Source: an uncultured bacterium
GTDB taxonomy: Bacteria; Patescibacteriota; Minisyncoccia; Phycocordibacterales; UBA11359
DNA: 64,000 bases
Direction of reading: 5' to 3'
NCBI GenBank assembly: GCA_903831815.1
Contig: CAIKZC010000002.1
Coordinates: 7,244 to 71,243, forward strand
The position numbers were made by a program, and so were the translations under genes. A model generated the notes under the pieces. That model ran no database searches. It had not been told where the DNA came from and saw only the letters and a program-made list of their open reading frames with translations. Positions within the stretch are counted from its first letter, which is position 1. Each line of letters begins with the position of its first letter. This document shows, piece by piece, positions 10,140 through 62,334 of this stretch.

Positions 10140-10150
10140 ATAAATCGCTA

Positions 10151-10247
10151 CAAACAGGCAGTCCTGAGGGCACAGGTAAATTTCCTGCTGGAAATTTCCT
10201 TCACACTCGCGCCGTCGCGCTCCGTGAGTCCCTCAGGACTGCCTGTT
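10151..10247 (+). repeat. structured palindromic repeat element, copy A (about 100 nt; 68-nt conserved core with two internal hairpins; outer 19-bp stem)
   Basis: AAACAGGCAGTCCTGAGGG-[core GGGCACAGGTAAATTTCCTGCTGGAAATTTCCTTCACACTCGCGCCGTCGCGCTCCGTGAGTCCCTC]-AGGACTGCCTGTTT then TTTCGCTTT. Lies 12 nt after the recA stop, same orientation as recA. Four related copies elsewhere in the window. Confidence 0.8.
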
Positions 10248-10585
10248 TTTCGCTTTACCTCCTCTTCACTTGCATTTGCGAATCATCTGAGTAGTATGAT
10301 AAACAGAAATGATTGTTCTAATACCCTCTAACCTTGGGAGACTTATCCATGAGAACTTCAGTGTGGCCCGATTGGTTTCATCATCACGGAACCAAAGTCC
10401 GCGTCAAAGACGGATGCTCTCCAAATCTACTCATTCTGGAAAGTAGCGCCGGAAGTCTGGTGATACGGCGAAAGAGCGACAACAAATGGACTGTGGACTG
10501 GTAAGTCAGCCAATCCGAGGAAACAGGTGAATTTTCGACCGGAAGACGAATCTTCACGTCAGATGAACTTCGGATTGCCTTTGGA

Positions 10586-10789
10586 TTGAAGGAAACTGGG
10601 ACGCCCTCTGATAGTCCCTCTTTCTTTGACAAGTGGGACTGCGACCGCGCGTTCCAGGGGAAATTCGTCGCAAAAGCTCAGTATCTAAACATTCCGGAGG
10701 GCGGCTCCGGTTTTGATGGAAACCCCAACATATCCATTGAAATCGATGATGCTATCCGTGATGCGGTGAGGAACATTGTGGAATACTGA
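10586..10789 (+). CDS. hypothetical small protein (TTG start), weak call
   Basis: 67-aa ORF followed by a terminator-like hairpin. It is in frame with an upstream 51-aa ORF (10349..10501) across a single TAA. No recognisable domain. Confidence 0.25.
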   Translation: MKETGTPSDSPSFFDKWDCDRAFQGKFVAKAQYLNIPEGGSGFDGNPNISIEIDDAIRDAVRNIVEY

Positions 10790-10813
10790 GTTTTTCCAAC
10801 ACCTATCGAACCT

Positions 10814-10854
10814 AGCCGACCCAATTACGGGCCGGCTTCTTTTTTTGTTTTTTC
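10814..10854 (+). terminator. rho-independent terminator-like hairpin
   Basis: AGCCGACCC-AATTAC-GGGCCGGCT followed by TCTTTTTTTTGTTTTTT. Confidence 0.5.
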
Positions 10855-10910
10855 TAGTAGACAAATCCCCTATTTTGCCCTAGAATGGCCTTACATTAAC
10901 CAAAAATATC

Positions 10911-11483: not shown

Positions 11484-11540
11484 TTGACTTCTTTTTTGAA
11501 AGGAATATAATCATATTTGATTATGGGCTTCGGCCTCCGA

Positions 11541-11565
11541 GAAACCACGTTAAAAGCGTGGTTTC
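11541..11565 (+). terminator. hairpin after efp (weak terminator)
   Basis: GAAACCACG-TTAAAAG-CGTGGTTTC. The downstream U-tract is poor. Confidence 0.3.
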
Positions 11566-11648
11566 GTTGTATCTACAAACAATTCTTTACACTTGATTAA
11601 CAGCGTAAATTCTAAAATTATGAAATTTGAGAAACTTTATTCCTATTT

Positions 11649-11859
11649 TTATTTTTTTTCGTAAAGCCAACCAACAAAAATACCTAAAAAAACTAATATC
11701 ACAAGAAGCCATAAAGAAATCGGAATCTCTATTCCACAAAGACCACCTCTGTAACCAGAATTCGAACATTTAAAAAAACTATGGAGTAATAAACCGATGG
11801 GGAAAAAACTAACAATCAAACCGACTGCCCCTCCCCTCAACCAATATCTTTTTGTTTTC
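11649..11859 (-). CDS. small two-TM membrane protein (hypothetical)
   Basis: Internal Met of the 126-aa track ORF: MKTKRYWLRGGAVGLIVSFFPIGLLLHSFFKCSNSGYRGGLCGIEIPISLWLLVILVFLGIFVGWLYEKK. The upstream part of the track ORF is occupied by repeat element B, so it was trimmed. Confidence 0.35.
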
Positions 11860-11914
11860 ATGGGTTTATAATAACACACTGTTTGATGATTTGTTGTGCA
11901 CATCTTTTGCGGAC

Positions 11915-12010
11915 GAGAGTGCCTATGCAGGGACTCACGGAGCGCGACTGGCGCGAGTGTGAAGGCAATTTTCAGCAGAAAATTGACCTGTGCCCTGCAT
12001 AGGCACTCTT
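11915..12010 (-). repeat. structured palindromic repeat element, copy B (reverse orientation, downstream of rpsR)
   Basis: Outer 17-bp perfect stem AGAGTGCCTATGCAGGG / CCCTGCATAGGCACTCT. Core is about 90% identical to copy A. Hairpin 1 is changed to CAATTTTC-TGCT-GAAAATTG, compensatory relative to A's AAATTTCC-TGCT-GGAAATTT. Confidence 0.8.
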
Positions 12011-12028
12011 GGTAGCAAAAGTAATACA

Positions 12029-12057
12029 CAAAAAAACCACCGAGCGGTGGTTTTTTT
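12029..12057 (-). terminator. bidirectional rho-independent terminator downstream of rpsR
   Basis: AAAAAAACCACCG-AGC-GGTGGTTTTTTT. Confidence 0.7.
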
Positions 12058-12070
12058 GTTAATTCGCAAA

Positions 12071-16750: not shown

Positions 16751-18120
16751 TAAATAGTGATTTTTGAAAGAATGTCCGAAATGGCTACCCTCTCCTGTTT
16801 TCCGCTATCGCGTTCGCGTATAGTGACCATATTATCGGTCAAAGTTTCAAAATCGACGGTGATGCAATATGGTGTACCAATTTCATCCTGTCGTCGATAA
16901 CGTTTACCAATATTACCGTTATCATCAAACATAATTTGAGGAATTTGTTTTTTGATCATATCGTAAACTTCACGAGCTTTTTCAACCAAATTTGGTTTGT
17001 TTTTTAGAAGAGGAAAAACCGCCGCTTTGATTGGAGCAAGATTTGTTGGAAATTTTAGAAAAACACGTTTCTCACCCCCCAATTCATCTTCGGTGTATGC
17101 TTTGGAGATTACAGCAAGAACATGTCTCCCTAAACCAAAAGTTGGCTCAAGAACATGGGGCACAGAACGCGTGTTATCAATCGGATCCAAATAAGATAGA
17201 TCCTTGCCGCTATTTTCAATATGATTTTTAAGGTCAAAATCGGTTCGATATGCCAAACCGGCAATTTCGTCAAATTTCTGCGGATAATTAAAATGAAAAT
17301 CAACTGTTCGTTTTGAATAATGAGCACGATCACCTTCTTCGATTTCGATTTCTTTAATATCTTCTTTGGTGAATCCGAGCAACTCGAACCATTTATGCAT
17401 TTGTTTTAACCAATATTCAAATTGTTCTTTCCATTGTTGTTCTTTAACAAAATATTCAAATTCCATTATCTCAAGCTCACGAACGCGAAATATAAAATCG
17501 CGAGGCGCTATTTCGTTACGGAATGAACGACCGATTTGAGCCATACCAAAAGGAAGTTTTGGATGATATGAATCTAAAATATTTTTGAAATTAACAAACA
17601 TTCCCTGAGCGGTTTCAGGTCTTAAATAAACAGTCGTATCCCCTCCTTCAATAGAACCGACCGAGGTTCTGAACATCATGTTAAATTGTTGTGGTGCAGT
17701 TAAATCATTGCCATCCGGGCTTTTAATTTTCTTTTCAACAATAATTTTACCCATTTCTTCCAAACTCATACCTTTTGGATCAACGCCAGCTTCTTCGAGC
17801 AAATGATCCGCTCGGAATCTTTTTTTGGTCTTTTTGTCTTCAACAAGCGGATCAGAAAAACCTCCAACATGACCGCTGGCTTCCCAGACTCGAGGATTCA
17901 TGAGAATAGCCGAATCAATACCAAACATATCATCACGAGAATCAACAAAAAAACGCCACCAAAGATTTTCTATATTTTTCTTGAGAGCCAAACCAAGAGG
18001 ACCATAGTCCCATGTGCCGGCAAGTCCTCCATATATCTCCGAGCCCTGATAAATAAAACCGCGTCGTTTGCAAAGCGAAACTAGTTTCTCCATGAGTTCA
18101 ATGTCTTTGGTCATATTCAA
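16750..18120 (-). CDS. glyQS: glycyl-tRNA synthetase, dimeric class II (GlyQS type)
   Basis: N-terminus ...RRGFIYQGSEIYGGLAGTWDYGPLG is characteristic of alpha2 GlyRS. Class II motifs and a C-terminal anticodon-binding domain. Stop overlaps the start of the AI-2E gene. Confidence 0.9.
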   Translation of the reverse strand: MNMTKDIELMEKLVSLCKRRGFIYQGSEIYGGLAGTWDYGPLGLALKKNIENLWWRFFVDSRDDMFGIDSAILMNPRVWEASGHVGGFSDPLVEDKKTKKRFRADHLLEEAGVDPKGMSLEEMGKIIVEKKIKSPDGNDLTAPQQFNMMFRTSVGSIEGGDTTVYLRPETAQGMFVNFKNILDSYHPKLPFGMAQIGRSFRNEIAPRDFIFRVRELEIMEFEYFVKEQQWKEQFEYWLKQMHKWFELLGFTKEDIKEIEIEEGDRAHYSKRTVDFHFNYPQKFDEIAGLAYRTDFDLKNHIENSGKDLSYLDPIDNTRSVPHVLEPTFGLGRHVLAVISKAYTEDELGGEKRVFLKFPTNLAPIKAAVFPLLKNKPNLVEKAREVYDMIKKQIPQIMFDDNGNIGKRYRRQDEIGTPYCITVDFETLTDNMVTIRERDSGKQERVAISDILSKITI

Positions 18121-20698: not shown

Positions 20699-23600
20699 CT
20701 AAACTTTTTTGAGTTGTACTGTAAGGTGAAGGTCTTCGGCGACCACGGGGGTGCCGGTCGTGTTTTGAACGAAGGACGGCGCACTGACCAAATTTACTTT
20801 TTTAACAAGTTCATCATTATATTTTTTAATAAAAGCCACCGTCATATCATCACCGGAAAATTCCATCGATGCCTTATCTTGCGGATTAAATTCCATCTCT
20901 TTACGAACCTCTTGAATAGCGCGCATGAGCTCGCGCAATTTCCCCTCTTCGATAAGTTCCGGTGTCATTTTAACATCAACAAGAACCGTAACATCGTTTG
21001 CCGTCATGCTTTCGTTATTTTTTTCTTTCAATCCTAAACTTCGCTTAACCAATTTTACGTTCAATTCCTCGGCAATGATCGACTCAAATTCCGGAGAAAG
21101 CATATTTTCCGCATCATATTCAATTCCAGCAAGCGGTTGACGAACTTTTTTGCCTTCTTTGGCTCTAAAAGCCAATCCAACTTCAACGATTTTTCGCACG
21201 GTGTTCATGTCGGTCAAAATTTTGACATCATAATTCTCACAAACCGGCCAAACACGTAAATGAACACTTTCAGCATCTGTTTCATTTTTAACTTTCTGGT
21301 AGATATCTTCGGCAATAAAAGGCATAAATGGTGCGATCAAAATTGAAAATTCAAACAAAACATATCGCATAGTAGCCAAGGCAGCCTCTTTGTCCGCAGC
21401 ATCGTCGCCTTTGAAACGATCACGTGATCGACGCAAATACCAAACGGAAAAATCTTCAATGAAATCATCAATCGGACGCGCCGCTTTGTCTAGCATGTAA
21501 GCGCCAAGAGCGCCGGTAATAGTGTTACAAGTTTGAGATAATCGAGCTAAAATCCAGCGGTCTAAGACATTTTCACTATTTTTGTAAGCTGCAGAATTGT
21601 CGGCATAAAGTGCGTAAAAAGAATAAATATTATTCAAACGCATCAAAAGTTTTTTAACGACCTCATCAAGACCTTTTTCGGAAAAGAGCAGTTCTTCGGA
21701 TTTTACGGCCGGACTCGACATCAAATAATAACGTAGAGCGTCGGCGGAATATTTATCGACGGCTGGCATTATTTCGGGAAAATTTTTCAATCTCTTGGAC
21801 ATCTTTTTGCCGTCTTCTGCCAAGACCAAACCGTTCACTATCACATTTTTGTATGGCGACTCATTGAAAAGCGCCACACCTAAAACAATCAAAGTGTAAA
21901 ACCATCCACGAGTCTGGTCTAGTCCTTCACCAATAAAATCAGCCGGGAAATTTTTGTGTTTTTCGGCATCAAAAACCGTTTTTTCAAAAGGATAATGATT
22001 TTGCGCATATGGCATCGAACCGGAATCGTACCAAGTATCAAAAACATCCAAGACACGCGCAAATTTACCGCCACACTCACAAGGCCATGAAATATCATCG
22101 ATATAAGGTCGATGGAGGTCAAGCTCCAATTTTTCATTGCGAGGGATATGATAGAAATGATGTTGCTTTACTTCTCCCGGATGCAAATAATCTTCATCTT
22201 TGGTTGCCGAAATTGCCAATATTTGTTTGCGAGTAAGCCCTTGCGCACCCATTCGCATAAAGAAAAGCGGATCGTCGTGACTTACGATCAAAATATTTTT
22301 ACCCTCATTTTCCTTATCAATGCCTATCAAAAATTCAGTCACGCGATTTCTCACGTTTTCCACCGTCTCCCCACCATTTGGTGCTTTGATATAGCGTTCC
22401 TCTTTATTTTTAAACAATGCATGATATTCCGCGCAACTTTTGCCATCCATTTCACCAACGTTCAATTCGCGAATTCGTTTATCAAAAATGATTTTTTCAA
22501 TCGGAAACCCAATCGTTTCCGCCACGATCTCGGCCGTTTCTTTGGTCCGAACAAAATCAGAAGCGTAGATAATATCGATTTTTTTGCCTTTCAAACTTTT
22601 AGCCGATTTCGCCACGTCATCTCTACCTTTTTCGGTAAGATGATGTTGATTTTCAACTTTTGAACTCAAAATATTTTTAACATTATGCTCGCCTTCGCCG
22701 TGACGCATCAGGAAATAAGTATTCGAGCTTCTAACCTTTTGTTTGAGGTCGTCGATCGAACCGAGTACTTCGATCTTTTTACATTCCTTGCAACGCCAGA
22801 TCGGCATGGCTGTACCCCAATATCGCTGTCGTGAAATACCCCAATCTTTGGCGCCTTCCAGCCAATTTCCAAAGCGCGCTTCACCGACATAATCCGGCAC
22901 CCAATGAATTTTATTATTTTCCGCAACCAAACGCTTTTTGATTTCAGTCACTTTTACGAACCATGAAGAAGTCGCATAGTTGAGAAGCGGCGTATCACAT
23001 CGCCAACAATGGGGATATGAGTGAATTATTTTTTCTTTAGCAAAAAGATTGCCCTTACCGGCCAAATATTTGATGATCTCGATATCGGCTTTTTGATGAT
23101 CGCCTTTCGGTTTTACGTCCTGCCCAGCAAATTCAATGACTTCCTTTTTAAATTTTCCGTCGGCGCTGACATGTTGAACAAATGGAATTTTTTTCTCCTG
23201 TGACAATTGCAGATCATCCTCGCCAAAACCGGGCGCAATATGCACTACTCCCGTACCATCTTCGATCGTGACAAATTCGGCTTCGTATACATGCCAAGCA
23301 TTCTCTTTGTTCGGCAATTCAGTATCTTTGTAATATGGAAAAATCGGTTCGTATGATTTACCGACCAATTTTGTACCCTTAAATTCATCTTCAACGGTAT
23401 ATGCCGACTTTATCGTCGACAATCGATTTTTGGCCAGAATAAGTTTAATGGTTTTTTCTGGATTTTTCTCATCAACGATGGAGATTTGGACATAATCAAT
23501 CTTCGAATTTACAGCTAAAGCAAAGTTACCAGGCAATGTCCAAGGTGTCGTCGTCCAAGCCAGCAAAAAAGTGTCCGGTACAATCTCGTCTTTTTTATCC

Positions 23601-24295
23601 TTCAACTGAAACTTCACATAAACCGAAATATCGGTGATATCTTTGTAACCTTGGTTGACTTCAAAGTTGGAAAGCGTCGTGCCGCAATGCGGACAGAGAT
23701 GCACCGATTTATAACCTTCGTAAGCCAGATCTTTTTTGAAAAGCTCTTTGAACGACCACCAAACGGATTCCATATAGGTCGAATCCATGGTCATATAATA
23801 ATTGTCCATGTCCACAAAACGACCGAGACGCGGAATTATTTTTTTCCAATCGGCGTAATATCGCAAAACGCTTTCGCGTGCGGCTTTGTTAAATTTTTCG
23901 ATACCGTATTCCTCGATCTCTTTTTTATTCTTAAGCCCAAGTTCCTTTTCGATCAAATTTTCTATCGGCAAGCCATGACAATCCCAACCCCAACGACGAG
24001 TGACGTGATAACCTTGCATCGTTTTGAAACGTGGGATCACATCTTTCATTGTGCCGGAAAGGATATGACCATAGTGTGGCAAACCGGTCGCAAATGGTGG
24101 ACCATCGTAAAAAGTAAACTCACCTTTTGGCGCGTCTTTTTGCAAAGTTTTTTCAAAAATTTTGCTTTCATCCCAAAAAGCCAAAATCTCTTCCTCGCGA
24201 GCGGCTAATGCGCTTTTCAAAGGAACTTCTTTCGCCGGTTTAACGGATTCACTTCCCTTTTCTTTTTTAACTTTGTCTGTCGCCATATATTGAAA
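20699..24295 (-). CDS. ileS: isoleucyl-tRNA synthetase carrying an internal histidine-phosphatase (PGAM-like) domain insertion of about 200 aa
   Basis: HIGH PFATGLPHYGH, KMSKS KMSKRLKNFP, editing domain. The insertion lies between WGISRQRYWG and VLDVFDTWYDSG and carries RHGEGEHN and ILIVSHDDPLFFMR motifs. Start taken at MATDK (24295); the track ORF extends to 24367. Confidence 0.85.
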   Translation of the reverse strand, partial: FQYMATDKVKKEKGSESVKPAKEVPLKSALAAREEEILAFWDESKIFEKTLQKDAPKGEFTFYDGPPFATGLPHYGHILSGTMKDVIPRFKTMQGYHVTRRWGWDCHGLPIENLIEKELGLKNKKEIEEYGIEKFNKAARESVLRYYADWKKIIPRLGRFVDMDNYYMTMDSTYMESVWWSFKELFKKDLAYEGYKSVHLCPHCGTTLSNFEVNQGYKDITDISVYVKFQLKDKKDEIVPDTFLLAWTTTPWTLPGNFALAVNSKIDYVQISIVDEKNPEKTIKLILAKNRLSTIKSAYTVEDEFKGTKLVGKSYEPIFPYYKDTELPNKENAWHVYEAEFVTIEDGTGVVHIAPGFGEDDLQLSQEKKIPFVQHVSADGKFKKEVIEFAGQDVKPKGDHQKADIEIIKYLAGKGNLFAKEKIIHSYPHCWRCDTPLLNYATSSWFVKVTEIKKRLVAENNKIHWVPDYVGEARFGNWLEGAKDWGISRQRYWGTAMPIWRCKECKKIEVLGSIDDLKQKVRSSNTYFLMRHGEGEHNVKNILSSKVENQHHLTEKGRDDVAKSAKSLKGKKIDIIYASDFVRTKETAEIVAETIGFPIEKIIFDKRIRELNVGEMDGKSCAEYHALFKNKEERYIKAPNGGETVENVRNRVTEFLIGIDKENEGKNILIVSHDDPLFFMRMGAQGLTRKQILAISATKDEDYLHPGEVKQHHFYHIPRNEKLELDLHRPYIDDISWPCECGGKFARVLDVFDTWYDSGSMPYAQNHYPFEKTVFDAEKHKNFPADFIGEGLDQTRGWFYTLIVLGVALFNESPYKNVIVNGLVLAEDGKKMSKRLKNFPEIMPAVDKYSADALRYYLMSSPAVKSEELLFSEKGLDEVVKKLLMRLNNIYSFYALYADNSAAYKNSENVLDRWILARLSQTCNTITGALGAYMLDKAARPIDDFIEDFSVWYLRRSRDRFKGDDAADKEAALATMRYVLFEFSILIAPFMPFIAEDIYQKVKNETDAESVHLRVWPVCENYDVKILTDMNTVRKIVEVGLAFRAKEGKKVRQPLAGIEYDAENMLSPEFESIIAEELNVKLVKRSLGLKEKNNESMTANDVTVLVDVKMTPELIEEGKLRELMRAIQEVRKEMEFNPQDKASMEFSGDDMTVAFIKKYNDELVKKVNLVSAPSFVQNTTGTPVVAEDLHLTVQLKKV

Positions 24296-24382
24296 CATAC
24301 TAGCATTTTTCCTGATTTTATAAAAGAAAAGCCCGACGGTAAAGTAACCGAAGGGCTGGAATGCCACGAATGCGAAACATTA

Positions 24383-33606: not shown

Positions 33607-34095
33607 TTATACGGCCAAACGCATTCGAGACTGACCTCGAACAAACTCCGGAAACAAAGGATGTTGAGTTTCATCATCTTTTTGCATCCTGGCAAGCTTG
33701 TCCGCCACCAAAGTGGCACCGTCGGTTCGTAAATCACGATATCGACGAAATTCAAAGCCCGGCTGACGAGTGTCAATGATGAGATCAGACACAAGAGATC
33801 CTTCGCGAGCAATAGCCAAACATGGCATACCCCTCGCCTCAACTTGTGTGGCCATTTCATAGCCAAGACCGGTTGCCGGATGATCACAGACTGCAACCAT
33901 CAGACAACATCTCATGACACAATCATGAATATCGTAACGATATATCTCGTAGGGAGGAAAATCTCCCAAACCCAAAAATGAAAGTACGGTGCAAAACGAC
34001 TTGACATTGATCTTGAAGCCCTCGATCTCCGCGCGAAATTCTGGCGGAGCATGAGTCAAACCACAACCAATATAAACCTTGCGATCAAAGAACAT
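33607..34095 (-). CDS. nucleoside 2-deoxyribosyltransferase-like / Rcl(DNPH1)-like deoxynucleotide N-hydrolase
   Basis: RBS AAAGGAG 8 nt before MFFDRKVYIGCG. VAVCDHPATGLGYEMATQVEARGMPCLAIA matches the catalytic Glu-containing GxGxExG(y)A motif of the NDT/Rcl superfamily. GC-richer than the neighbours. Confidence 0.55.
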   Translation of the reverse strand: MFFDRKVYIGCGLTHAPPEFRAEIEGFKINVKSFCTVLSFLGLGDFPPYEIYRYDIHDCVMRCCLMVAVCDHPATGLGYEMATQVEARGMPCLAIAREGSLVSDLIIDTRQPGFEFRRYRDLRTDGATLVADKLARMQKDDETQHPLFPEFVRGQSRMRLAV

Positions 34096-34177
34096 GGCCA
34101 GCTCCTTTTGTAAAAAGCCAAAGTTAAATCCTAAATATAATATAAGCCCAACTGAATAAAAAAGCAAAAAAGAGCCC

Positions 34178-34225
34178 CGGGTTTTGTTCGTCGCTTTCTT
34201 GCGACGAACAAAACCCGGGGTATAC
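34178..34225 (-). terminator. strong rho-independent terminator (21-bp perfect stem) after the 34228..34770 gene
   Basis: CCCCGGGTTTTGTTCGTCGC-TTTCTT-GCGACGAACAAAACCCGGGG. The minus strand continues CTCTTTTTTGCTTTTTT. Confidence 0.75.
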
Positions 34226-34227
34226 CC

Positions 34228-34770
34228 TCACCCGACACAACGAAGCAACTGGTCACAACCGAAAACAATCTTGCGATTCATGTCCCACCACTTGTCCCAT
34301 GGTCTGGCGACTTCAGCCTGAAGACAAAGCCGGCCATGATCATCTCCAAAGATCCTTAGGATGCAAGGATCGCTCGCCGAATCAAGGCGTTGATTCATGA
34401 CAAACCACAGGTCAATGCCCCTGTAAGTCGGCCGGCGGCTAAGGTGAACTGCGACAGCCAAAACGGCCTCGCTTGGACAGATCCGACCGCCTATACTTGG
34501 AATGTAACTCCAGATCTCGTGAGTGGCGGGGATGGATTCAAACAGCATATCGAGGCGAGCCGCAGCCAAATTGAGCGGTATCACACTTCGACACAGGCTA
34601 CTGAATCCCCTACTTTTGATCACGAAGTCGGCCTCCGGCAAAACATGAACGCCCACGGCATTCAAAATAAGTGCCCATTCATCCTCTGTTTTGTATGCCG
34701 CTTCGATCTGCATCCAAAACATTTCACGCGCACTTCTGACAGTACGTTTCTGGATTGTCATCTGTGACAT
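34228..34770 (-). CDS. GC-richer hypothetical protein (about 180 aa)
   Basis: RBS AGGAGG 7 nt before ATGTCACAGATG (MSQMTIQ...). Strong terminator downstream. No domain recognised. Confidence 0.45.
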   Translation of the reverse strand: MSQMTIQKRTVRSAREMFWMQIEAAYKTEDEWALILNAVGVHVLPEADFVIKSRGFSSLCRSVIPLNLAAARLDMLFESIPATHEIWSYIPSIGGRICPSEAVLAVAVHLSRRPTYRGIDLWFVMNQRLDSASDPCILRIFGDDHGRLCLQAEVARPWDKWWDMNRKIVFGCDQLLRCVG

Positions 34771-34884
34771 CGCGCATTCCTCCTGAAAAGAACTCCGTTT
34801 AAAATTCAAAACGATTGACGCTGACATTAATTAAACGTCCGCCAGATTACATTGTCAACGAATAAGTATTTAAAAAACAAAGTA

Positions 34885-34980
34885 AAAGAGCAGTTTTGAG
34901 GGACTCACGGAGCGCGACGGCGCGAGTGTGAAGGAAATTTCCAGCAGGAAATTTACCTGTGCCCTCAAAACTGCTCTTTT
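34885..34980 (-). repeat. structured palindromic repeat element, copy C (reverse orientation, 3' of rplK)
   Basis: Core identical to copy A over 68 nt. Outer 19-bp stem AAAAGAGCAGTTTTGAGGG / CCCTCAAAACTGCTCTTTT. T-run on the minus strand after the element. Confidence 0.8.
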
Positions 34981-35002
34981 ACTTTGCTTTCTACTCTTTT
35001 TA

Positions 35003-38814: not shown

Positions 38815-39273
38815 ATATAGACGGTCTCAAAGGGCCGTTCTTACAGCATATAATACCACAAAAAACCAATACATAAAGCCCATTTTTGCATAAAAAAAGG
38901 CGGCAGGTGAGTATCATCCCTGGTATACAAGAGATTGAGTCACCAGACCGCCGTTGCTTCTAACGTCTATGCGAATGATCCGCAAGAAAATGCAAACCAT
39001 CGGCACCATGAACAAAATGGTCCAAACCTCCCTTCTCGTCTTTCGGCCAATCCATTCATGAACAGGCGCGATGATAAGTGTTGTGTCACCTCATGTGACA
39101 CGGTTCAACGATACGCTCTAACCGATGTTAGGGTCGTCGCGAGGTAGCACCATGACGGAACCTCCCTTCTATACTCAAGGATATTCCCACAAATATCGCG
39201 TGTCAAGTTCATAACAAAGCTCGCCATGCAGCCATCTTAAAAAAACTTTTAAATTACAAAATCAATTAGAAAA

Positions 39274-46270: not shown

Positions 46271-46303
46271 GATCAAAGTGCAGAAAAGATAGAGAAGAAA
46301 AAA

Positions 46304-46406
46304 GTAGAAAAGCAGCTCTCGAAGCACACGGAAATCGCCTTACTGGCGATTTCCTTATCCTCGCGCCAGTCGCGCTGCGGAGTGCTTCTGCGAGTTGCTT
46401 TTCTAC
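46304..46406 (+). repeat. structured palindromic repeat element, copy E (divergent variant; between convergent genes, overlapping the rarA stop region)
   Basis: Outer stem of about 24 bp, GTAGAAAAGCAGCTCTCGAAGCAC / GTGCTTCTGCGAGTTGCTTTTCTAC (a few mismatches). Hairpin 1 GGAAATCGCC-TTACTG-GCGATTTCC. Hairpin 2 CTCGCGCCAGTCGCGCT conserved. Followed by TTTTTAGTTTTT. Confidence 0.7.
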
Positions 46407-46409
46407 TTT

Positions 46410-47546
46410 TTAGTTTTTCTTATAGTATTTCTTGCCTTTCAATTTCTCCGGCAATAAGTCTTCCTTGGTATATTTCTCATAACCTTTTCCGTAATCAAGA
46501 TCTTTCATGAGTTTAGTTGGAGCATTCAGAATATTTAAAGGTATTGGCAAATTACCGAATTTTTTAGCGTCATCCAAAGCAGTCATGTAGGCATAATATG
46601 CCGACTTGTTTTTTGGCGCTTGTGAAAGATATACGACACCATGTCCCAAATTGATTCCCGCTTCGGGATATCCTATCGTCTCTACTGCTCTAAACACCGC
46701 ATTGGCCAACACCAAAGCGTGAGGGTCTTCCATACCGACATCTTCACTGGCAAAAATCACCATGCGCCGAGCAATAAATTTTGGGTCCTCCCCCGCTTCG
46801 ACCATACGAGCCAGATAATACAGCGCCGCATCCGGTTGACTGGCTCGCATGCTTTTTATAAAAGCGCTGATGGTGTTGTAGTGTTCATCGCCTTTTTTGT
46901 CATAACGCAAATATTTCGATTGCAGAGATTTCTTGAAATTTTCTATTGTCATCTCTCCGTACAATCTTTCGGTATTTTCGATCAAAGCGATAGCTTGTCG
47001 AGCATCACCACCCGATGCCGCCACGAGCCAATCCTCCACCTCTTTCGAAATATCAAAACCTGTACGTCCGATAATTGTTTTTATTTCATTCTCGGCCAAT
47101 TCGTTGAGCACAAAAACTTGGCAACGCGAGAGAAGTGCCGGGATAACTTCAAAACTCGGATTTTCGGTCGTTGCACCGATTAAAGTCAATTTACCGGATT
47201 CAACATAAGGCAAAAGAAAATCTTGTTGAGCTTTATTAAATCGATGAATCTCATCGAGAAACAATATTTTGGCGCCAAAAAGTCCGGCCGGTGCATTCAC
47301 GATTTCTCGAATATCATCTTTTCCGGCCGACACCGCCGAGAGCTCATGATATTCAGCCTTGAGCGATTTGGCGTATATTCTAGCCAACGTCGTCTTGCCG
47401 ACTCCGGGCGGTCCCCATAAAATAAAAGAGAAAAGATGTTTTTTGGCCACAGCAACGCCGATCGGTTTATCATCCCCGACCAAATGTTCCTGCCCGACAA
47501 ATTCAGAAAGGTCTTTCGGCCGTATCTTTGAAGCCAGCGGTTCCAT
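46410..47546 (-). CDS. rarA: replication-associated recombination protein A (AAA+ ATPase RarA/MgsA)
   Basis: Walker [10 protein letters not shown], Walker [11 protein letters not shown], sensor and arginine-finger regions, C-terminal MgsA helical domain. Confidence 0.85.
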
Positions 47547-48137: not shown

Positions 48138-50900
48138 TTACACCGGTTTAGCAACAATAGGCTCAGGTTTTTTGGAATATTTTTCGGCAATGTCGGCTTC
48201 GATTTCGGCGCGGTCGCGACCAAATTTTAGGAATGAAAGTTCTTTGAGAGCATCAAGGTGATCTTTTGAATTTACTGGTGGTGGTAAAGTTTCAATATTG
48301 AATGGTTTAACCGGACGGCCATCAACCAACAATTTTACGTAAGCATTTCGATTGTCGATGTTCATGATATCGGCGGCGAGAAACGGTTCAAATTGTTTGG
48401 CTAAAAACTCGGCATCTTCGGCACCGGTTCTAAAGGCGGCAATGGAGCCGACGTTACCGAACACGGCGTCACGAATATTTTCTTCAAGTTGAGCGATAAA
48501 TTGATGAGCAACGGTCAGCGACAATTTATACTTACGAGCTTCTGAAAGAATTGTGGCAATCGAGTCGGTGGTGACGTTTTGGAACTCATCGATATACAAA
48601 TAAAACGGTGGCAAATTTTTATCAACTGAATCAACTCGCGAAAGTGCAGACATCAAGATCTTGCCAACTAAAATGAGACCAATCAAATTGGCATTAATAT
48701 CACCGAGTCTACCTTTAGCCAAATTAACCAATAATATTTTTTTACCATCCATAACCTCACGGAAATTGAACGATGATTTCTGCTGTGAAATGATCGGCCG
48801 CATAATGTCGTTAGAAAGAAATACATCAAACTTGCTAGTGATATAAGGCACAATGTTGGCCAGCGACGCTTCCCCACCGGCTTTATCAGCCACCTCTTTC
48901 CAAAACTGAACCACAATCGGATTTTTGCAATGCGAAAGTTTCATTTCGCGGAAAGGTTTGTTGGCCAAAACTTTGGAAACATCGAGTAACGTATTCCCCG
49001 TTTCCGGATCTTCCATGACAAGCAAGACAGCATTTCTAAAATATTGTTCGAACATCGGACCGCCAGCCACTTTCATATCAAACAATTTATTGAAAATACT
49101 GAGCATCTCGTTGACCACAAAAGTTTTTTGCTCCGGATGATTTATATCGTACTCAAGCATGTTGATGGCCATTGGCCGCGCACTTTGACTTGGATCAAAA
49201 TAAATAACATCTTCGTAACGCTCTTTTGGCACAGCCGCCAAGACATCCAAAATATCAATGCCATGAGGGTCAATCATACAAACTCCGGCGCCTTGCTGAA
49301 TATCCTGAATAATCATGTTTTTGAGCATGGTTGATTTACCTGTTCCGGTCTGTCCAATGACATACAAGTGACGCAAACGGTCCTCAGCGGTCATATAGAC
49401 CTTAGTTTCAACGTTGCGGTGTCTATTAACCCCCATGAGCGTTCCAGAAGTCGGCATACCAACCGGTGCCGGAGCAGAGCCGGATTTTGCCTGTCGCAAT
49501 TGCGGAGCAGCATTACCAGTCGTTTGAAAGTGCATCAGCGAAGCCAGTTCGTGAATGTTGAGAGGAATTGATTCATCTTCATCAAAAATTCTAAAAGAAA
49601 AATCATGCAAGACGGCGTTGGTGGCGGACGTTTTCACTCGTTTAAATTTCAAACCGTTACCGAGCGTATTGTTGAACTGATTAAATGTCGCCTCAATTTC
49701 AGCCAGGATTTTTTCGGCATCAATTTCCGTTTGACCGGAAACCACAATTTTAATTGAAACTTCGACGATTGGATTGGAAACTTTTTTGGTTACAAGCTCG
49801 ATAGCTTGATCATCCATTTTTAACGGTTCTTTTTTCTCTTCTTCGTCTTTCTTTTTTTCGGTTTTAGCAAAAACGTCTCTTAATCCTTTCCAAACTTCGC
49901 CACCTATTGAATCCGGAACGTCCAACGCATCTTTTGTTTTTACCCCTTTGTGGAGTTGTTTCAATGCACCGCTGTAAAGTTTTACATAATGATCATCAGC
50001 CGGCCTGACCATCACCTGCAAACTGGCGCCCTCACCTATTTTCTTAATCTTGGAAAAACTATTTAAAATAATATTAAGTGGATCGTATTCAAATTCTTCA
50101 TAAGTCTTGATTGGATAGATGGATTTACCAGAAGATACAGCATACGAAACAACCGATACACCGGCTTCATCAAAAACATTGTAGTCGCCTGAAACTTCAA
50201 TAATTTTGGCATTAGGGAAAATAGCCAAAAGTTGTTTTTCAAAAAGATCTTTTTTGACATCCGGTACGGAAACATAAAATATCGATTCTTCGCTGTGATT
50301 TGGATTGGCGATTTCCAGAGAAAAATAATTGTCCTCAGCATTTTTGCCACCAGCAATCGAAAGCATGCCGGCATAAAACTGTTCCATTGAACCGATAAAT
50401 TCTTTCAATGTTTTCTCTTCAGACTGTTTATCGCCTTTGGGTAGTGCAATTTCAAAAAGCGTCATGTGCAAAGCCTTATACAAAGTGCTTTTATCTTTCA
50501 AACCATCTAAAGGAAAACCCTGTTTCAAATATTGCACCAAAAAGCGATGAAAATCGTCATCAATATGAGGATCATTTAACTTTTCGATAACGGAAAGTGT
50601 GTTCCAGATCCCCTTCTCCTGAAGGAGACCCAGTAATTCGGCAATTTTTTCATCATGTTCCTCCGGCTCTAAATCAAGGACGATTTTCTCGATTTTTTTA
50701 TCCGAGAGCTGCATTTTAGGATGCAAAACTTCGTTGATTGGCTGTTTTTTATATTCCTCAACTGTTTTTTGAACCAAAGAATGCATCTCTTGTCGCGTTT
50801 CGGCCGTGCTGGCGTGTTCATAGACTTTGGCCCGCAAATATTCAAGTTCTTCTTCCGGAGTTTTAAATACCGGTATTTCGTTTGTTTGAAGTTTCTCCAT
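48138..50900 (-). CDS. 920-aa soluble protein with C-terminal VirD4/TraG/TrwB-type coupling-protein (T4CP-like) P-loop ATPase domain
   Basis: Walker A YVIGQTGTGKST. Walker-B-like FYLYIDEFQNV. TVAHQ...FRTG region parallels TrwB's VVAGLQS...FRS. No predicted TM helices. The N-terminal 480 aa are unrecognised. Confidence 0.55.
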   Translation of the reverse strand: MEKLQTNEIPVFKTPEEELEYLRAKVYEHASTAETRQEMHSLVQKTVEEYKKQPINEVLHPKMQLSDKKIEKIVLDLEPEEHDEKIAELLGLLQEKGIWNTLSVIEKLNDPHIDDDFHRFLVQYLKQGFPLDGLKDKSTLYKALHMTLFEIALPKGDKQSEEKTLKEFIGSMEQFYAGMLSIAGGKNAEDNYFSLEIANPNHSEESIFYVSVPDVKKDLFEKQLLAIFPNAKIIEVSGDYNVFDEAGVSVVSYAVSSGKSIYPIKTYEEFEYDPLNIILNSFSKIKKIGEGASLQVMVRPADDHYVKLYSGALKQLHKGVKTKDALDVPDSIGGEVWKGLRDVFAKTEKKKDEEEKKEPLKMDDQAIELVTKKVSNPIVEVSIKIVVSGQTEIDAEKILAEIEATFNQFNNTLGNGLKFKRVKTSATNAVLHDFSFRIFDEDESIPLNIHELASLMHFQTTGNAAPQLRQAKSGSAPAPVGMPTSGTLMGVNRHRNVETKVYMTAEDRLRHLYVIGQTGTGKSTMLKNMIIQDIQQGAGVCMIDPHGIDILDVLAAVPKERYEDVIYFDPSQSARPMAINMLEYDINHPEQKTFVVNEMLSIFNKLFDMKVAGGPMFEQYFRNAVLLVMEDPETGNTLLDVSKVLANKPFREMKLSHCKNPIVVQFWKEVADKAGGEASLANIVPYITSKFDVFLSNDIMRPIISQQKSSFNFREVMDGKKILLVNLAKGRLGDINANLIGLILVGKILMSALSRVDSVDKNLPPFYLYIDEFQNVTTDSIATILSEARKYKLSLTVAHQFIAQLEENIRDAVFGNVGSIAAFRTGAEDAEFLAKQFEPFLAADIMNIDNRNAYVKLLVDGRPVKPFNIETLPPPVNSKDHLDALKELSFLKFGRDRAEIEADIAEKYSKKPEPIVAKPV

Positions 50901-56446: not shown

Positions 56447-57136
56447 TCATTTTGTCAATATCCGCACCGTCTGTTTATGAACTATAGCTAAACTTTGCTT
56501 AATTTTCAAGTTTTTTCTAGATAAGCAAGTAACATCCTGTTTGTAATACATACCTTTAACTAAAGCAATCCCCTCTTTTTTTGCGTATCTAAGTTGATAG
56601 CAACCATTCAACCTATTTGTATAGGTTACATGTCCATTTAATTTCAAAAACCTGAAAACAGATGCCTGAATCCAATCAATGAATTCCTTACTCGCAGAAG
56701 CAAGACTTAGATAAAACATAAAGCTAGATCTCCAACGTGGATCCCAATATGAATAACTACAACCATCACCGTCAAAACACCCTCTCAAAAAATCGAAGAA
56801 ATATTCGTCTGGAATTTTAATTTTTCCAATTGTTAAAGACTTTGCTGAAGTGATTCCAATACTCTGAAGAAATTCATAAAACAGCACGTCTCCAAACTGA
56901 ATTCTGAAAGACATATTCTTTCCGCCTCCAGAAAAAGTTTTACCAACTTTAATGTCAACAATATTAAGACATTTCACAAAATTATTTATCTGTTCTATAT
57001 CTTTTGAAACAAAAATAATATGTCGACCATCACACGAAAGACAACCATCCGTAACAATCAACCCAATCGAATACGCAAAATTTGCCGACCATTCAATTTT
57101 GATTTTTCCTTTTGGTTTTGGTCCTGTGATGCTCAT
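56447..57136 (-). CDS. LAGLIDADG-family homing endonuclease (single chain with two motifs)
   Basis: Motif 1 YSIGLIVTDGCLS, motif 2 FLRGCFDGDGCS. 229 aa. Stop codon 1 nt from the tRNA-Leu-like 5' end. Confidence 0.75.
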   Translation of the reverse strand: MSITGPKPKGKIKIEWSANFAYSIGLIVTDGCLSCDGRHIIFVSKDIEQINNFVKCLNIVDIKVGKTFSGGGKNMSFRIQFGDVLFYEFLQSIGITSAKSLTIGKIKIPDEYFFDFLRGCFDGDGCSYSYWDPRWRSSFMFYLSLASASKEFIDWIQASVFRFLKLNGHVTYTNRLNGCYQLRYAKKEGIALVKGMYYKQDVTCLSRKNLKIKQSLAIVHKQTVRILTK

Positions 57137-57190
57137 ATTTTCAATTATATTAATTAACTAAATATGAGTTTGGGAGTTATACACAACAAA

Positions 57191-57225
57191 AAACCTCCGA
57201 AACCGGAGGTTTTTGTTTTTTTCTT
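57191..57225 (-). terminator. bidirectional rho-independent terminator between rplS and the LAGLIDADG gene
   Basis: AAAAAACCTCCG-AAA-CCGGAGGTTTTTGTTTTTTT. Confidence 0.7.
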
Positions 57226-59352: not shown

Positions 59353-59886
59353 TTAAATACTTTCAGTTACATTAATATCGAAAGTCGCTGTCCATGAAGA
59401 ACTGTAACCACCACTCGTAATAGGTGTCCTGTTGATCATAAATCCTTGCACATGAATATCATATGGCAAATTTTCGATCTGACTCATAAAATACATCGTA
59501 TTGCTCCAAGTCCCCGTAGTTCCCACTTGCAAACTTAAATTATTGCTAGTGTTAGCAACCCCATCAGAGGCAGAAATATTGTTCGTTTTACTCTCCAAAC
59601 CGCTTTTTGTTGCTAAAGATTCAATTTGACCAATAAAAGTAATTTCACTGTCTTTAGGCAATAAAAATATCGCGAGTTGTTGACGTTGTGATTCCGTTTC
59701 CTTTATGATCGCTCGCAAAGAACCCAAACGACTATTTTTTTGCTCACTAACATTGATCGCGTTGATCAAATTCGATGACGATTGAGTTTCTGTCACAATG
59801 AAATGGAACAAAAAATAATACCCTGTAACGGCGAAAAGATTGCAAACGATTAGTATGATCAAAATTTTGGTTGACTGAAACTTCAT
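59353..59886 (-). CDS. pilO: type IV pilus assembly protein PilO-like
   Basis: N-terminal TM, coiled-coil, then periplasmic domain. Position after pilM/pilN. Confidence 0.4.
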   Translation of the reverse strand: MKFQSTKILIILIVCNLFAVTGYYFLFHFIVTETQSSSNLINAINVSEQKNSRLGSLRAIIKETESQRQQLAIFLLPKDSEITFIGQIESLATKSGLESKTNNISASDGVANTSNNLSLQVGTTGTWSNTMYFMSQIENLPYDIHVQGFMINRTPITSGGYSSSWTATFDINVTESI

Positions 59887-60425
59887 TGATTTTTTGGATT
59901 CATTATAATGGTTATGGCAAAATCGATATTTTGGGCCTTGGCAAAATCCGACACAGGCAAATCGGCCGAGATGACTCCCTGTTGCAATTTTATTTTTTTA
60001 ACGAAATCAAGCAAAGTTTGTCGCGAACTAGCTCTTCCGGAAACAATAATTTGCATTTGACCATTAATCATTCTGTATAGGAAACTGCTTAGATTTATGG
60101 CCGTGCCGCGCGTTTTTACAATAATCTGGAGGGCATTAACAACTCCTATAGGTGTAGATGAGGACGACAAAATATTGATGTAAGAATTGGTTTTTTGGAC
60201 GATTTTTGACAATTCTAAGGTCTCGGCATTTAAATTTTGAACTTTTAGATCAGCTGATTGCGAATTTAAAATATCAATACGCGTTTGCGCAGTTAAAAAT
60301 GATGGAACAAGCAGGATCAAAGAAATTGCTTCCCCGGCCAAAGCGAGAGCGAGAGCAACCACAATAAACCTGTTTCGATACTCTCGAATTATTTTCTGTT
60401 TTTGTTCTTTTAATAAAAGGTTAAG
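59883..60425 (-). CDS. pilN: type IV pilus assembly protein PilN-like
   Basis: Start taken at MLNLLLKEQKQKIIREYRNRFIVVALALALAGEAISLILLVPSF. Short cytoplasmic N-terminus, TM, then periplasmic coiled-coil, typical of PilN. Confidence 0.45.
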   Translation of the reverse strand, partial: LNLLLKEQKQKIIREYRNRFIVVALALALAGEAISLILLVPSFLTAQTRIDILNSQSADLKVQNLNAETLELSKIVQKTNSYINILSSSSTPIGVVNALQIIVKTRGTAINLSSFLYRMINGQMQIIVSGRASSRQTLLDFVKKIKLQQGVISADLPVSDFAKAQNIDFAITIIMNPKNQ

Positions 60426-61425
60426 CATGATAGAAACGTAATAATGACAAACCAATAGCAGGAGCATAATCAAGCGATTCTTCAAAAGACATTTCCGGAA
60501 TTTGTTCGCTAAAATCCAAAACATTCACCCAAACATTGGCGAGTTCAACTCCACAACCTGCGATGTCCGCCAAATATTGTTTCAACCCCGGAGCGGTTGC
60601 CGCTTTGCCGGAAATAAAAACCTTCTTGATGGCCGTATTTCCGCTTTCATTACGACTCTGCCAGTATAATTTAAGTTTAACAATTTCATCCTTAAGAAGT
60701 GATAGTCTCTTTTCAATATCAGTCTGCTCACTCACACGACCAGCATTGACCGTAGATGTAAACTGCAAAAAACCATTGCTCACGATACCAAAACCGGTTC
60801 TAGTATCTCCAACATTTATGATGAGACATGTTTCCGTTTCGCCTCGCGGAATGACAGTTCTGGCAACAGCCTGAGTCACCAATTCACAAGAGACAGGTAC
60901 GATTGAAGCTGAATGGAAAAGATCCAGATAAGCGCCGATGACTTTATTGGGTACAACAGTTACCACAGCTTCGTCACGTTTGTGACTATCAACAGATCGA
61001 ATAGTATTAAAATCAAAAACTGATTTTGCTGCATCAACCGGAACGTTTTCGTCCAAACGAAGCTCTATGTTTTCGGCGATATATTTATCTTCGACATTAG
61101 GCAATTCCATTTTAAAAAGATAACCCTTCTCTTCCGGCAAAGATATGCTGGCAAATTTAAAACCGTGCTCCTTATGGATTTCAGCCAAAACTTTTTTAAT
61201 TTCTTCAGGCTTATTAATAAATCCGCCAGTAATTACGCCTTCTGCAAGTTTTTTCTCACCAAATGATTTGAGATGAAAACGATGACGCCCGGATTCGGTA
61301 TGCGCAATCTCGATAAAACGAACAGCCTGATCGGAAATATCTATGCCAACCGAAGGCATTTCCAAATAGGCCGGTGTTGGGAAAAAATCAAAAAATTTTC
61401 TTTTATGATGAACTGATGTGCTCAT
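60421..61425 (-). CDS. pilM: type IV pilus assembly ATPase-fold protein PilM (actin/FtsA-like)
   Basis: ...VGIDISDQAVRFIEIAH... N-terminal actin-fold start. 334 aa. Followed by the pilN/pilO-like genes. Confidence 0.6.
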   Translation of the reverse strand: MSTSVHHKRKFFDFFPTPAYLEMPSVGIDISDQAVRFIEIAHTESGRHRFHLKSFGEKKLAEGVITGGFINKPEEIKKVLAEIHKEHGFKFASISLPEEKGYLFKMELPNVEDKYIAENIELRLDENVPVDAAKSVFDFNTIRSVDSHKRDEAVVTVVPNKVIGAYLDLFHSASIVPVSCELVTQAVARTVIPRGETETCLIINVGDTRTGFGIVSNGFLQFTSTVNAGRVSEQTDIEKRLSLLKDEIVKLKLYWQSRNESGNTAIKKVFISGKAATAPGLKQYLADIAGCGVELANVWVNVLDFSEQIPEMSFEESLDYAPAIGLSLLRFYHA

Positions 61426-61463: not shown

Positions 61464-62264
61464 TTATTTTACTTTTGTACCGGGTGGAATAGTTGGGTCA
61501 ATGGAAAGTAAAGAAAATGTGCCTGCATCGGTCGAAACGGCGAGGATCATACCTTGGCTTTCAAGACCCATCATCATGCGAGGTTCGAGATTTGTGACAA
61601 AGCCGATCGTGCGTCCGATCAAAACATTAGCATCAGAAAAATGTTTGGCGATACCAGAGAGAACCTGACGAGATTTTTCTTCACCAAAATCAACTTCAAG
61701 CTTTAGAAGTTTATTAGATCCCGGAATCGGTTCCGCTTTGAGGATTTTGCCCGCCCGAATTTCAACTTTTGCAAAATCATCGATGGTTATTGAGGGTTTT
61801 TGCATTTGTTGAGGTTGCTCTTTTTTATTGTCTTCTACCCTGCTCTTTTTCTTGTCCAAATAACTTTGCAAAATTAGAGCGGCTGCCGATGCATCCAGCA
61901 GATCATGTTTCCCTTGGAAAAATTCAGCCTGATGCGAAGTTAAAAATTCCGGTTCGAAAAATATCGGGATGATCGGCGGCACCAGTGGCGGAGACAAAAG
62001 CACTAACGAGCTCTCCATGGCAGTTTTAAAATCTCGAATTTCGGTCATAATGGAATTATCCTCTCCTTTAAAATCTTTTGATTCACCCAAGACTATTTCC
62101 GCGACGTTTTCTTTTTTGATGATCTCAACGATTTCGGCCAAAACTTTTTCTTTAGTGCTTCTGGAGTTTTTTATGACGGAATAAGGCTGCCCAAAAGCCT
62201 GCCCTTCATCGCTTAGGGCTATGCCGATACGCTTTGTGCCGTAATCTATTCCTAAAATTCTCAT
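61464..62264 (-). CDS. ruvX: fusion ORF: Holliday-junction resolvase-like RuvX/YqgF + CsaA-type tRNA-binding (Myf) domain
   Basis: N-terminus MRILGIDYGTKRIGIALSDEG...DASAAALILQSYL is RuvX. C-terminus ...ITIDDFAKVEIRAGKILKAEPIPGSNKLLKLEVDFGEEKSRQVLSGIAKHF...LEPRMMMGLESQGMILAV is the tRNA-binding domain. No stop codon between them. Start trimmed to avoid tRNA-Ser. Confidence 0.6.
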   Translation of the reverse strand: MRILGIDYGTKRIGIALSDEGQAFGQPYSVIKNSRSTKEKVLAEIVEIIKKENVAEIVLGESKDFKGEDNSIMTEIRDFKTAMESSLVLLSPPLVPPIIPIFFEPEFLTSHQAEFFQGKHDLLDASAAALILQSYLDKKKSRVEDNKKEQPQQMQKPSITIDDFAKVEIRAGKILKAEPIPGSNKLLKLEVDFGEEKSRQVLSGIAKHFSDANVLIGRTIGFVTNLEPRMMMGLESQGMILAVSTDAGTFSLLSIDPTIPPGTKVK

Positions 62265-62334
62265 ATTCGCATTGTATACCAAAATGCCAAAAGTTGAAAA
62301 TAAAGAGAAAATATGGCAGTATTTCAAAACCGAC

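Follow-up and report, generated by a model that had tools for sequence, protein, structure and literature searches.

The window analysed here, a stretch of 64,000 nucleotides from an uncultured patescibacterium, contains five copies of a palindromic element with a long outer stem (P1) and a branched, conserved core. Comparison with related loci shows that the fold is maintained by compensatory change on both strands, and that whole units, P1 included, are gained, lost and swapped between core subfamilies among close relatives. The explanation that we prefer, and to which we give an even chance of being right, is a new mobile palindromic repeat of the REP, REPIN or MITE kind, in which the folded core is recognised by a factor acting in trans and P1 doubles as a bidirectional terminator.

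Copies of the repeat in the window

All five copies are intergenic (5 per 64 kb, a density of about one copy per 13 kb), they lie in both orientations, and the repeat makes up ~1% of the window sequence. The initial annotation had located them correctly, with offsets of 1–5 nt. A degenerate core pattern of 24 specified bases common to all five gives five matches in the window and 0 in 100 shuffles. The covariance model R1, based on 11 copies and applied to the entire window with filters off, scores A, C, D and B at 115–125 bits and E at 69 bits; it gave no sixth copy, and its remaining matches are plain hairpins. The unit is ~110 nt long in the window and 90–170 nt across the family. The copies, the parts of copy A and the adjoining features are:

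10146–10255, + strand: copy A, A-type core, 6 nt 3′ of the recA stop codon; R1 125 bits
10152–10170, + strand: 5′ arm of P1 in copy A, 19 bp perfect, partner 10230–10248 (inverted-repeat scan)
10174–10200, + strand: P2 hairpin of copy A, AGG-U-AAAUUUCC / UGCU loop / GGAAAUUU-CCU (covarying pairs)
10204–10226, + strand: P3 of copy A, CAC/GUG, UC/UCC internal loop, GCGC-CGUC-GCGC
10230–10248, + strand: 3′ arm of P1 in copy A, followed by T5
11907–12017, − strand: copy B, A-type core, in the convergent efp/rpsR spacer; R1 115 bits
12028–12059, no strand assigned: ordinary bidirectional terminator hairpin, separate from the repeat, between rpsR and copy B
34877–34986, − strand: copy C, A-type core, 16 nt 3′ of the rplK stop codon; R1 124 bits
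44888–44997, + strand: copy D, A-type core, P3b GGCC/GGCC; R1 121 bits
46042–46409, + strand: lineage-specific insertion consisting of a small hairpin, a 63-aa membrane ORF and copy E (three-way alignment)
46301–46410, + strand: copy E, E-type core, directly adjacent to the rarA/mgsA stop codon; R1 69 bits
859–888, 2777–2810, 12028–12059 and 57189–57214: native terminators used for comparison

P1 of copy A corresponds to structure columns 7–25/86–104 of alignment A3. Copies A and C share an identical run of 71 nt (10165–10235 in A), of which 68 nt had been reported correctly. The statement that the other cores differ at paired positions only holds for D and nearly holds for B, which has two compensated pairs and one extra loop base; it does not hold for E, a member of a diverged subfamily in which loops and junction differ too. 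Copy C has perfect arms of 25 bp, copy B gains an outer helix (TTTTGC...GCAAAA) when folded with its flanks, and copy D occupies the spacer between the convergent nrdJ and a VTT-domain gene (Pfam). Copy B had been placed after rpsR; the terminator at 12028–12059, a 14-bp perfect stem with A and T tracts that is also kept in the relative L106, intervenes. (Labels of this form denote loci from other genomes and metagenomes.) All window copies read sense 6–53 nt past a stop codon, with E abutting its stop, but orientation is informative for A and C only, because B, D and E lie between convergent genes. A check for convergent gene pairs, confined to the window and read from the ORF list, places copies in 3 of ~6 convergent spacers compared to 2 of ~55 co-directional ones.

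Two ORF-free stretches of this packed genome, at 10256–10910 (655 nt) and 11484–11906 (423 nt), lie beside copies A and B. They have no Rfam match and no similarity to any fetched locus, and the matching spacers in L016, L020, L083, L062 and L108 are much shorter (0–183 nt). Between copy C and dcd, at 33607–34827, are two ORFs of 199 and 186 aa with no Pfam match, separated by a 20-bp perfect hairpin at 34175–34220. L097 has nothing in this interval and L006 one unrelated ORF, and the interval looks like an insertion hot spot.

Exact copies of the window proteins are found solely in ENA metagenome contigs of the same strain. The RecA relatives in GTDB species genomes, with 88% identity at the most, all belong to Patescibacteria of Paceibacteria/Parcubacteria groups. 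The gene content is of the small-genome type, with many tRNA synthetases, nucleotide-salvage genes and type IV pilus genes (pilM/pilO at 59353–61425). There is no rplA 3′ of rplK; the gene following copy C is a different one and has no Pfam match. At 20699–24367 a 1222-aa isoleucyl-tRNA synthetase carries a His_Phos_1 (histidine-phosphatase) domain inside its catalytic domain, an architecture also present in L101, L102 and L108. The window further encodes a 920-aa VirD4/TraG-like coupling ATPase (T4SS-DNA_transf, TraG-D_C; 48138–50900) and an ORF with a weak LAGLIDADG-like domain adjoining rplS (56447–57136). On the − strand, an ORF fusing RuvX to a tRNA-binding domain (61464–62381; entry span 61464–62421) overlaps the start of a + strand tRNA with a long variable arm (62335–62421).

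Fold and covariation

Each window copy folds into P1, P2 and P3 with z-scores of −8 to −12 (copy A, −60.3 kcal/mol, z −9.3; copy E, −65.8 kcal/mol). The outer stem P1 is long (16–29 bp) and almost purely Watson–Crick, and a conserved three-way junction closes its top. Of the two hairpins that leave this junction, P2 has 11 bp, a single bulged U and a UGCU loop, and P3 consists of a 3-bp helix, a UC/UCC internal loop, a 4-bp helix and a C(A)GUC loop. The strands that join the helices measure 0, 3 and 1 nt, with UCA between P2 and P3 and a single A leading back to P1. The reverse strand folds just as well as the forward strand, whether taken as RNA or as DNA.

In an ordinary MAFFT alignment of 11 copies, 92.8% of cells are paired and 24 of 39 pairs have changed on both sides. 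With 24 copies the values are 92.6% and 36 of 39, with 269 double-change cells compared to a handful of one-sided ones; this larger alignment was fitted to the model structure and its counts lean towards structure, but the MAFFT alignment gives the same picture. None of 500 shuffles attains the observed pairing values, and shifted registers drop to 38–55% paired. The earlier proposal that structure is under constraint is thus borne out. The unpaired bases of the core are nearly invariant. A second, smaller hairpin had been drawn in the core and is present as P3, but the register of P3a supported by covariation is C-N-C/G-N′-G (A:U, G:C, U:A, C:G), which differs from that of the energy-only fold; P3 covariation is seen at columns 60/81, 65/75 and 66/74. 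The pairs comprise 798 Watson–Crick, 22 A-C and 10 G-U combinations, and G-U is not favoured on either strand. We considered and dropped the reading that the lack of G-U pairs indicates a function at the DNA level. The ordinary terminators of the window are also perfect palindromes, with 73 bp and 0 G-U, and G-U scarcity therefore does not discriminate between DNA and RNA.

The outer stem is variable, as described at first, but it is not free to vary. It has position-specific preferences, with several columns at 80–90% a single pair type and a loose consensus for the 5′ arm, AAAAG(T/A)G..TTT..GGG, in both subfamilies. This arm is purine-rich, whereas the 5′ arms of ordinary terminators are C-rich. 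Many copies continue into a further outer helix beyond a 3×3 internal loop. The distal arms vary between copies; an outer helix TTTTGC/GCAAAA is common to three loci in three genomes (B, L006, L104) and is limited to one subtype.

Other structured elements were considered. A self-cleaving ribozyme or riboswitch was set aside by comparing the anatomy with the features of these classes: the junction strands measure 0, 3 and 1 nt, a hammerhead, twister, pistol or hatchet core is lacking, the length of P1 is far beyond that of a switching helix, and orientation is not fixed. For an invertible promoter, no conserved −35/−10 was seen by eye in the core, and the covariation of P2 and P3 would stay unexplained.

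Distribution of the family

No Rfam family matches the repeat (Rfam 15, searched with the window, copy A, the ORF-free flanks and six related loci), in agreement with the initial annotation, which could assign no named family. At the gathering threshold the whole window gives four tRNAs and nothing else. At E ≤ 10, copy A gives generic long-hairpin microRNA models with 6–25 bits against thresholds of 55–500, and Rfam is silent at the copies in the six loci with diverged copies. We found no account of the element in the literature on repeats or structured RNAs of CPR/Patescibacteria.

The exact degenerate pattern matches nothing in viral contigs and nothing in the GTDB species genomes, because the copies of other species are too diverged for it. 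It finds seven JGI metagenome loci, with near-identical cores and differing outer stems. The covariance-model search that had been proposed, run on the window, reference loci and congeners, does find diverged copies in other species: they occur at 10 of 80 reference Paceibacteria recA loci (40–90 bits), and at least 10 other Paceibacteria species as well as metagenomes carry them. Congeners reached via RplK, RarA and RecA relatives also hold copies; the nearest reference genomes have no copy after recA. Of the 11 copies at reference loci, 9 are no more than 1.5 kb from recA (P about 2e-4), and the recA-efp-rpsR spacers are occupied in congeners and distant Paceibacteria alike. The A-type core subfamily comprises copies A–D and most metagenome copies, and the E-type subfamily comprises E, L097, L106 and L108-B.

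The contig ends of L002, L092 and L096, from independent metagenome assemblies of the window strain, fall inside copies A and C (window positions 10205, 34921 and 10181); the repeat fragments metagenome assemblies of these genomes. A second, unrelated palindromic family is found at L010:8091–8195, L010:9301–9396, L010:16590–16693 and L066:9861–9936, on both sides of recA in L010 and just upstream of recA in L066. Its 18–24-bp arms are identical between the L010 copies, and its core reads AGTCCTCGGGTCGC...CCAGACT. Long-armed palindromes at L070:8336–8438 and L054:9027–9115, whose centres share GAGCAAAGCGA, possibly form a third family.

Site histories among relatives

After rplK, both the window and L006 (RplK 92% identical, rplK DNA 77%) carry an A-type element. 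The two cores are identical at 63 of 65 positions (97%), while the stems are about 55% identical and fully compensated. L006 retains an ordinary terminator in front of its element. L097 (RplK 93%) has an E-type core at this site, with a stem that begins like that of the window, and L098, L101 and L102 (RplK 83–87%) have plain terminators alone.

Three relatives with RarA 86–87% identical (L103, L104, L105) have the gene order of the window with sites D and E empty. After nrdJ, L104 and L105 have plain terminators. The nrdJ/VTT-domain spacer of L103, which is the copy D site, contains a different palindromic element with ~17-bp arms and a ~110-nt structured centre (L103:12116–12271). At the E site, 2–16 nt separate the convergent stop codons in L103 and L104, and in the window a 368-nt insertion lies between them. 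No hairpin is present at the empty site; therefore, P1 arrives with the core. No copy is present in 21 kb of L103; L104 and L105 have copies in other spacers, at opposite ends of a DGR island. The DGR genes (bAvd and reverse transcriptase) are at L104:393–1846, L104:18685–20038 and L105:15534–16914, with repeat copies at the island edges, and are absent from the matching window spacer at 38815–39273. L104 also has a half-element of P1 and P2 only, at ~17190–17240.

Copies are also present after recA and after rpsR in the congeners L106/L107 (RecA 97%) and L108 (94%), and in the distant species L016, L022, L062 and L083, but the occupants differ. After recA, the window has an A-type copy, L108 an A-type copy with another P1, and L106 an E-type copy. 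At rpsR, the window copy is A-type and those of L108 and L106 are E-type, with the L106 flanks the same as in the window. No presence/absence alleles were seen within one population, where the contigs with exact window proteins are all from the same strain. The initial annotation had argued for selection on structure rather than duplication of a mobile element. This is a false opposition, as relatives show gain and loss of the unit, differing sites and swaps of subfamily.

Orientation and gene context

The sense orientation after a stop codon, described as general, holds for all five window copies but not outside the window, where flanking genes were assigned from crude ORF calls. At least four copies lie antisense between co-directional genes (L004a/L009, L016, L034, L056), that of L004a/L009 following a pilin gene and preceding recJ. 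Four sites are between divergent genes: L003 and L004b, both upstream of pilB, L005, and L066, upstream of ftsK. Single sites hold opposite orientations in different genomes: + in the window and − in L016 after recA, and − in the window and + in L083 and L062 in the efp/rpsR spacer. Across the family, orientation is independent of the flanking genes. Because antisense and divergent sites exist, a dedicated terminator, one of the roles proposed at first, is not the defining role of the family; P1 is nevertheless terminator-like where it is the sole hairpin after a gene. Sequence alone shows a stable hairpin with an immediate T run after a gene in A, C, D, L007, L016, L034, L097 and L106-A, and no immediate T run in B, L003, L004b, L006, L008, L019, L022a and L026. 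Distal A and T tracts are present, as in ordinary terminators, in 3′-end copies without a second hairpin. They are missing in B and L006, which follow a terminator, and in L003, L004b, L019 and L022a, which occupy 5′ or divergent spacers.

Among the genes next to copies are recA, the ssb operon, nrdJ, rarA, recJ, pilB, pilin and ftsK. An association with DNA-repair or competence genes is suggestive in the metagenome loci (pilB twice, recJ/pilin) and not significant in the window, where it is weak because genes of DNA and nucleotide metabolism are numerous there in any case. In L004 (703–11244), a ~10-kb block of pilin, minor pilins, pilC and pilB with pgk and tpi has a copy at each end, both oriented alike, with recJ on one side and nusA on the other. 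No recurrent unknown protein is found beside the copies, where syntenic housekeeping genes alone recur. There is likewise no transposase, RAYT or recombinase among ~60 window proteins or next to any copy.

Discussion

Gain, loss and overwriting on the time scale of congeners, in any orientation, is the behaviour of an interspersed non-autonomous repeat. Mobility is further supported by the near-identical cores of the many copies, by the patchy distribution (10 of 80 Paceibacteria recA loci) and by other palindromic families of the same build at similar sites (L010 around recA, L103 after nrdJ). The unit that is gained and lost is the whole hairpin and not just its core, as the armless empty E site, the P1 consensus and the TTTTGC/GCAAAA helix at three loci show. 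The element would be non-autonomous and of the copy-and-replace type, as REPs, REPINs and MITEs are. The fold and the unpaired core bases are held more tightly than neighbouring coding DNA, which implies that something reads the folded single strand. That single strand, DNA or RNA, may be recognised by a putative trans-acting protein encoded elsewhere in the genome, for which the invariant loops and the junction would form the recognition surface. Where the element is the sole hairpin after a gene, P1 takes the A-tract/T-tract form and is predicted to serve as a bidirectional terminator. Some observations do not fit simple mobility. Flanking direct repeats of 2–6 nt have no common length or sequence and are chance-like with fuzzy boundaries, so there is no consistent target-site duplication, and the family as a whole has no sequence-conserved terminal inverted repeats. 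That the recA-efp-rpsR spacers stay occupied in close and distant Paceibacteria alike resembles selection for presence or strong target preference. The constraint on the core (63/65 compared to 77% in rplK DNA) is stronger than a purely selfish, decaying repeat should show, and identical cores occur within differing P1 stems (A and C).

A host cis-acting RNA module, located in the 3′ UTR, intercistronic region or 5′ UTR of mRNAs, is possible, although we doubt it. P1 would then be a terminator or an RNase III-type processing stem, and the junction would bind a putative RNA-binding protein affecting 3′-end stability or read-through in a set of highly expressed or DNA-metabolism genes. Such a module would account for the very strong covariation with invariant loops and junction, for a core 97% identical next to rplK DNA at 77%, for the five window copies all lying sense 6–53 nt after a stop, for the resemblance of P1 to native terminators, for sites at recA, efp and rpsR conserved across Paceibacteria, and for neighbours such as recA, the ssb operon, nrdJ, rarA, recJ, pilB, pilin and ftsK. 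The scarcity of G-U is no counter-argument, given native terminators with 73 bp and 0 G-U. The module is, however, hard to reconcile with antisense copies between co-directional genes, divergent copies, opposite orientations at one site in different genomes, and sites D and E being empty in congeners; moreover, neither strand prefers G-U to A-C (10 vs 22), and the richness of the window in DNA and nucleotide-metabolism genes weakens the gene association. Independently transcribed small RNAs are very improbable: the fold is stable and conserved and T runs follow some copies, but the 5′ flanks share no promoter-like sequence, copies abut or overlap stop codons with 0–30 nt to spare, a density of one copy per ~13 kb is not what a gene for a trans-acting RNA would show, and both orientations occur at the same site.

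Among explanations at the DNA level, it is improbable that the copies are single-strand recombination sites of the attC kind, marking junctions between the backbone and lineage-specific insertions. Every window copy does adjoin lineage-specific DNA: E the 63-aa ORF, C the two ORFs without Pfam match, in place of which L006 has an unrelated ORF and L097 nothing, D a VTT-domain gene absent in L104 and L105, and A and B the ORF-free stretches of 655 and 423 nt. Copies in L104 and L105 are at opposite ends of the DGR (bAvd and reverse transcriptase) island, those of L034 and L085 adjoin extra small ORFs, and a palindrome of attC-like size with structure rather than sequence conserved would fit. 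On the other hand, no integrase or recombinase was found nearby, there are no arrays, inserted genes do not come with one copy each, and accessory DNA is lacking next to many copies (L016, L019, L026, L062, L083). A conserved centre with variable ends is the reverse of attC, and variable spacers may simply gather both kinds of DNA. Still less probable is a mobile core of ~68 nt that inserts alone into the apex of existing terminator hairpins, leaving host terminators as outer stems. The identical cores in different stems (A and C), the plain terminators at the rplK and nrdJ sites of relatives and the frequent terminator-like A and T tracts of P1 point that way. They are opposed by the family consensus of P1 with its purine-rich 5′ arm, C-rich in ordinary terminators, by the absence of a hairpin at the empty E site, by the separate ordinary terminator retained beside the element in B, L006 and L106, and by divergent-gene copies with long P1 stems and no T tracts. 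The mobile palindromic repeat remains our preferred explanation.

We also consider, as a speculative and rather unlikely reading, that the three-way junction is the docking site of a CPR-specific machinery acting on folded single-stranded nucleic acid. This might be a recombinase or nuclease with specificity for structure, able to copy, replace or invert whole hairpins and to capture accessory DNA at the copies; in function it would resemble integron attC recombination, without any evolutionary relationship to it. Alternatively, it might be a ribonucleoprotein that would coordinate genes of DNA uptake, recombination and nucleotide salvage (recA, ssb, recJ, pilB/pilin, nrdJ, rarA).

The element is undescribed; it works most like a REP/REPIN or a MITE but fails the defining features of both, and two descriptions offered at first, a REP/BIME-like element and a recognition site for an unknown protein, still serve it best. 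Like REP/BIME and REPIN sequences, it is a multi-copy extragenic palindrome found in either orientation, after genes and between convergent genes, it folds as a single strand, it may be used as a terminator or mRNA 3′ stabiliser, and it persists at some sites and turns over at others. However, a REP is a 20–40-nt imperfect hairpin with a conserved GTAG head and a conserved stem, whereas here the branched apex is conserved and the long stem varies. No GTAG head is present; CTAC occurs 5′ of P1 in A, B and L006 only, in the wrong orientation. The REPINs of proteobacteria are mobilised by RAYT, a Y1 HUH transposase, and no RAYT/Y1_Tnp match was found among the ~60 window proteins or the proteins flanking copies. 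The likeness to bacterial MITEs (Correia/NEMIS, ERIC, RUP, BOX, Rickettsia palindromic elements) lies in a size of 100–170 nt, insertion as a whole unit, intergenic spread, assembly breaks and occasional terminator or processing roles. MITEs have conserved terminal inverted repeats, target-site duplications and an IS parent, none of which were found here, and the fetched loci contain no transposase that could be such a parent. The conservation of the element is instead central and structural.

Integron attC sites such as the Vibrio VCRs are also palindromes at gene 3′ ends (57–141 nt) with a conserved folded structure and accessory genes. They keep their outer R″/R′ boxes and extrahelical bases, have a variable centre and form arrays beside intI. 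We found no R″/R′ boxes (RYYYAAC ... GTTRRRY) in the element, which has variable, A/T-tract-like ends and a conserved centre. The window has no cassette array or integron integrase, and the copies are dispersed among recA, rpsR, rplK, nrdJ and rarA. In most 3′-end copies P1 is, as in bidirectional intrinsic terminators, a perfect stem with distal A and T tracts. Native terminators have stems of 11–20 bp and loops of 4–6 nt, compared to a conserved branched apex of ~65 nt in the element, which also occurs where no terminator is expected. The PATEs derived from IS200/IS605 are similarly small and non-autonomous, with hairpins recognised as single-stranded DNA. They have no flanking inverted repeat, insert beside a fixed tetranucleotide and show a bias for one replication strand. 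No such fixed flank was seen around the copies. The GC skew is negative throughout the window while the copies run + − − + +, so that both orientations occur in one replichore, a weak indication with n = 5.

Patescibacteria have tiny, packed genomes with almost no described non-coding elements, and a repeat that takes up ~1% of the sequence therefore needs explaining, the more so as compensatory change has preserved it in at least a dozen species and it returns recurrently to the recA, efp and rpsR spacers. Conservation of a branched apex instead of the ends implies a mode of recognition not yet described for bacterial repeats. The covariance model can be used to map genome dynamics in this uncultivable lineage, and the partner protein, if found, could reveal a new structure-specific DNA or RNA enzyme.
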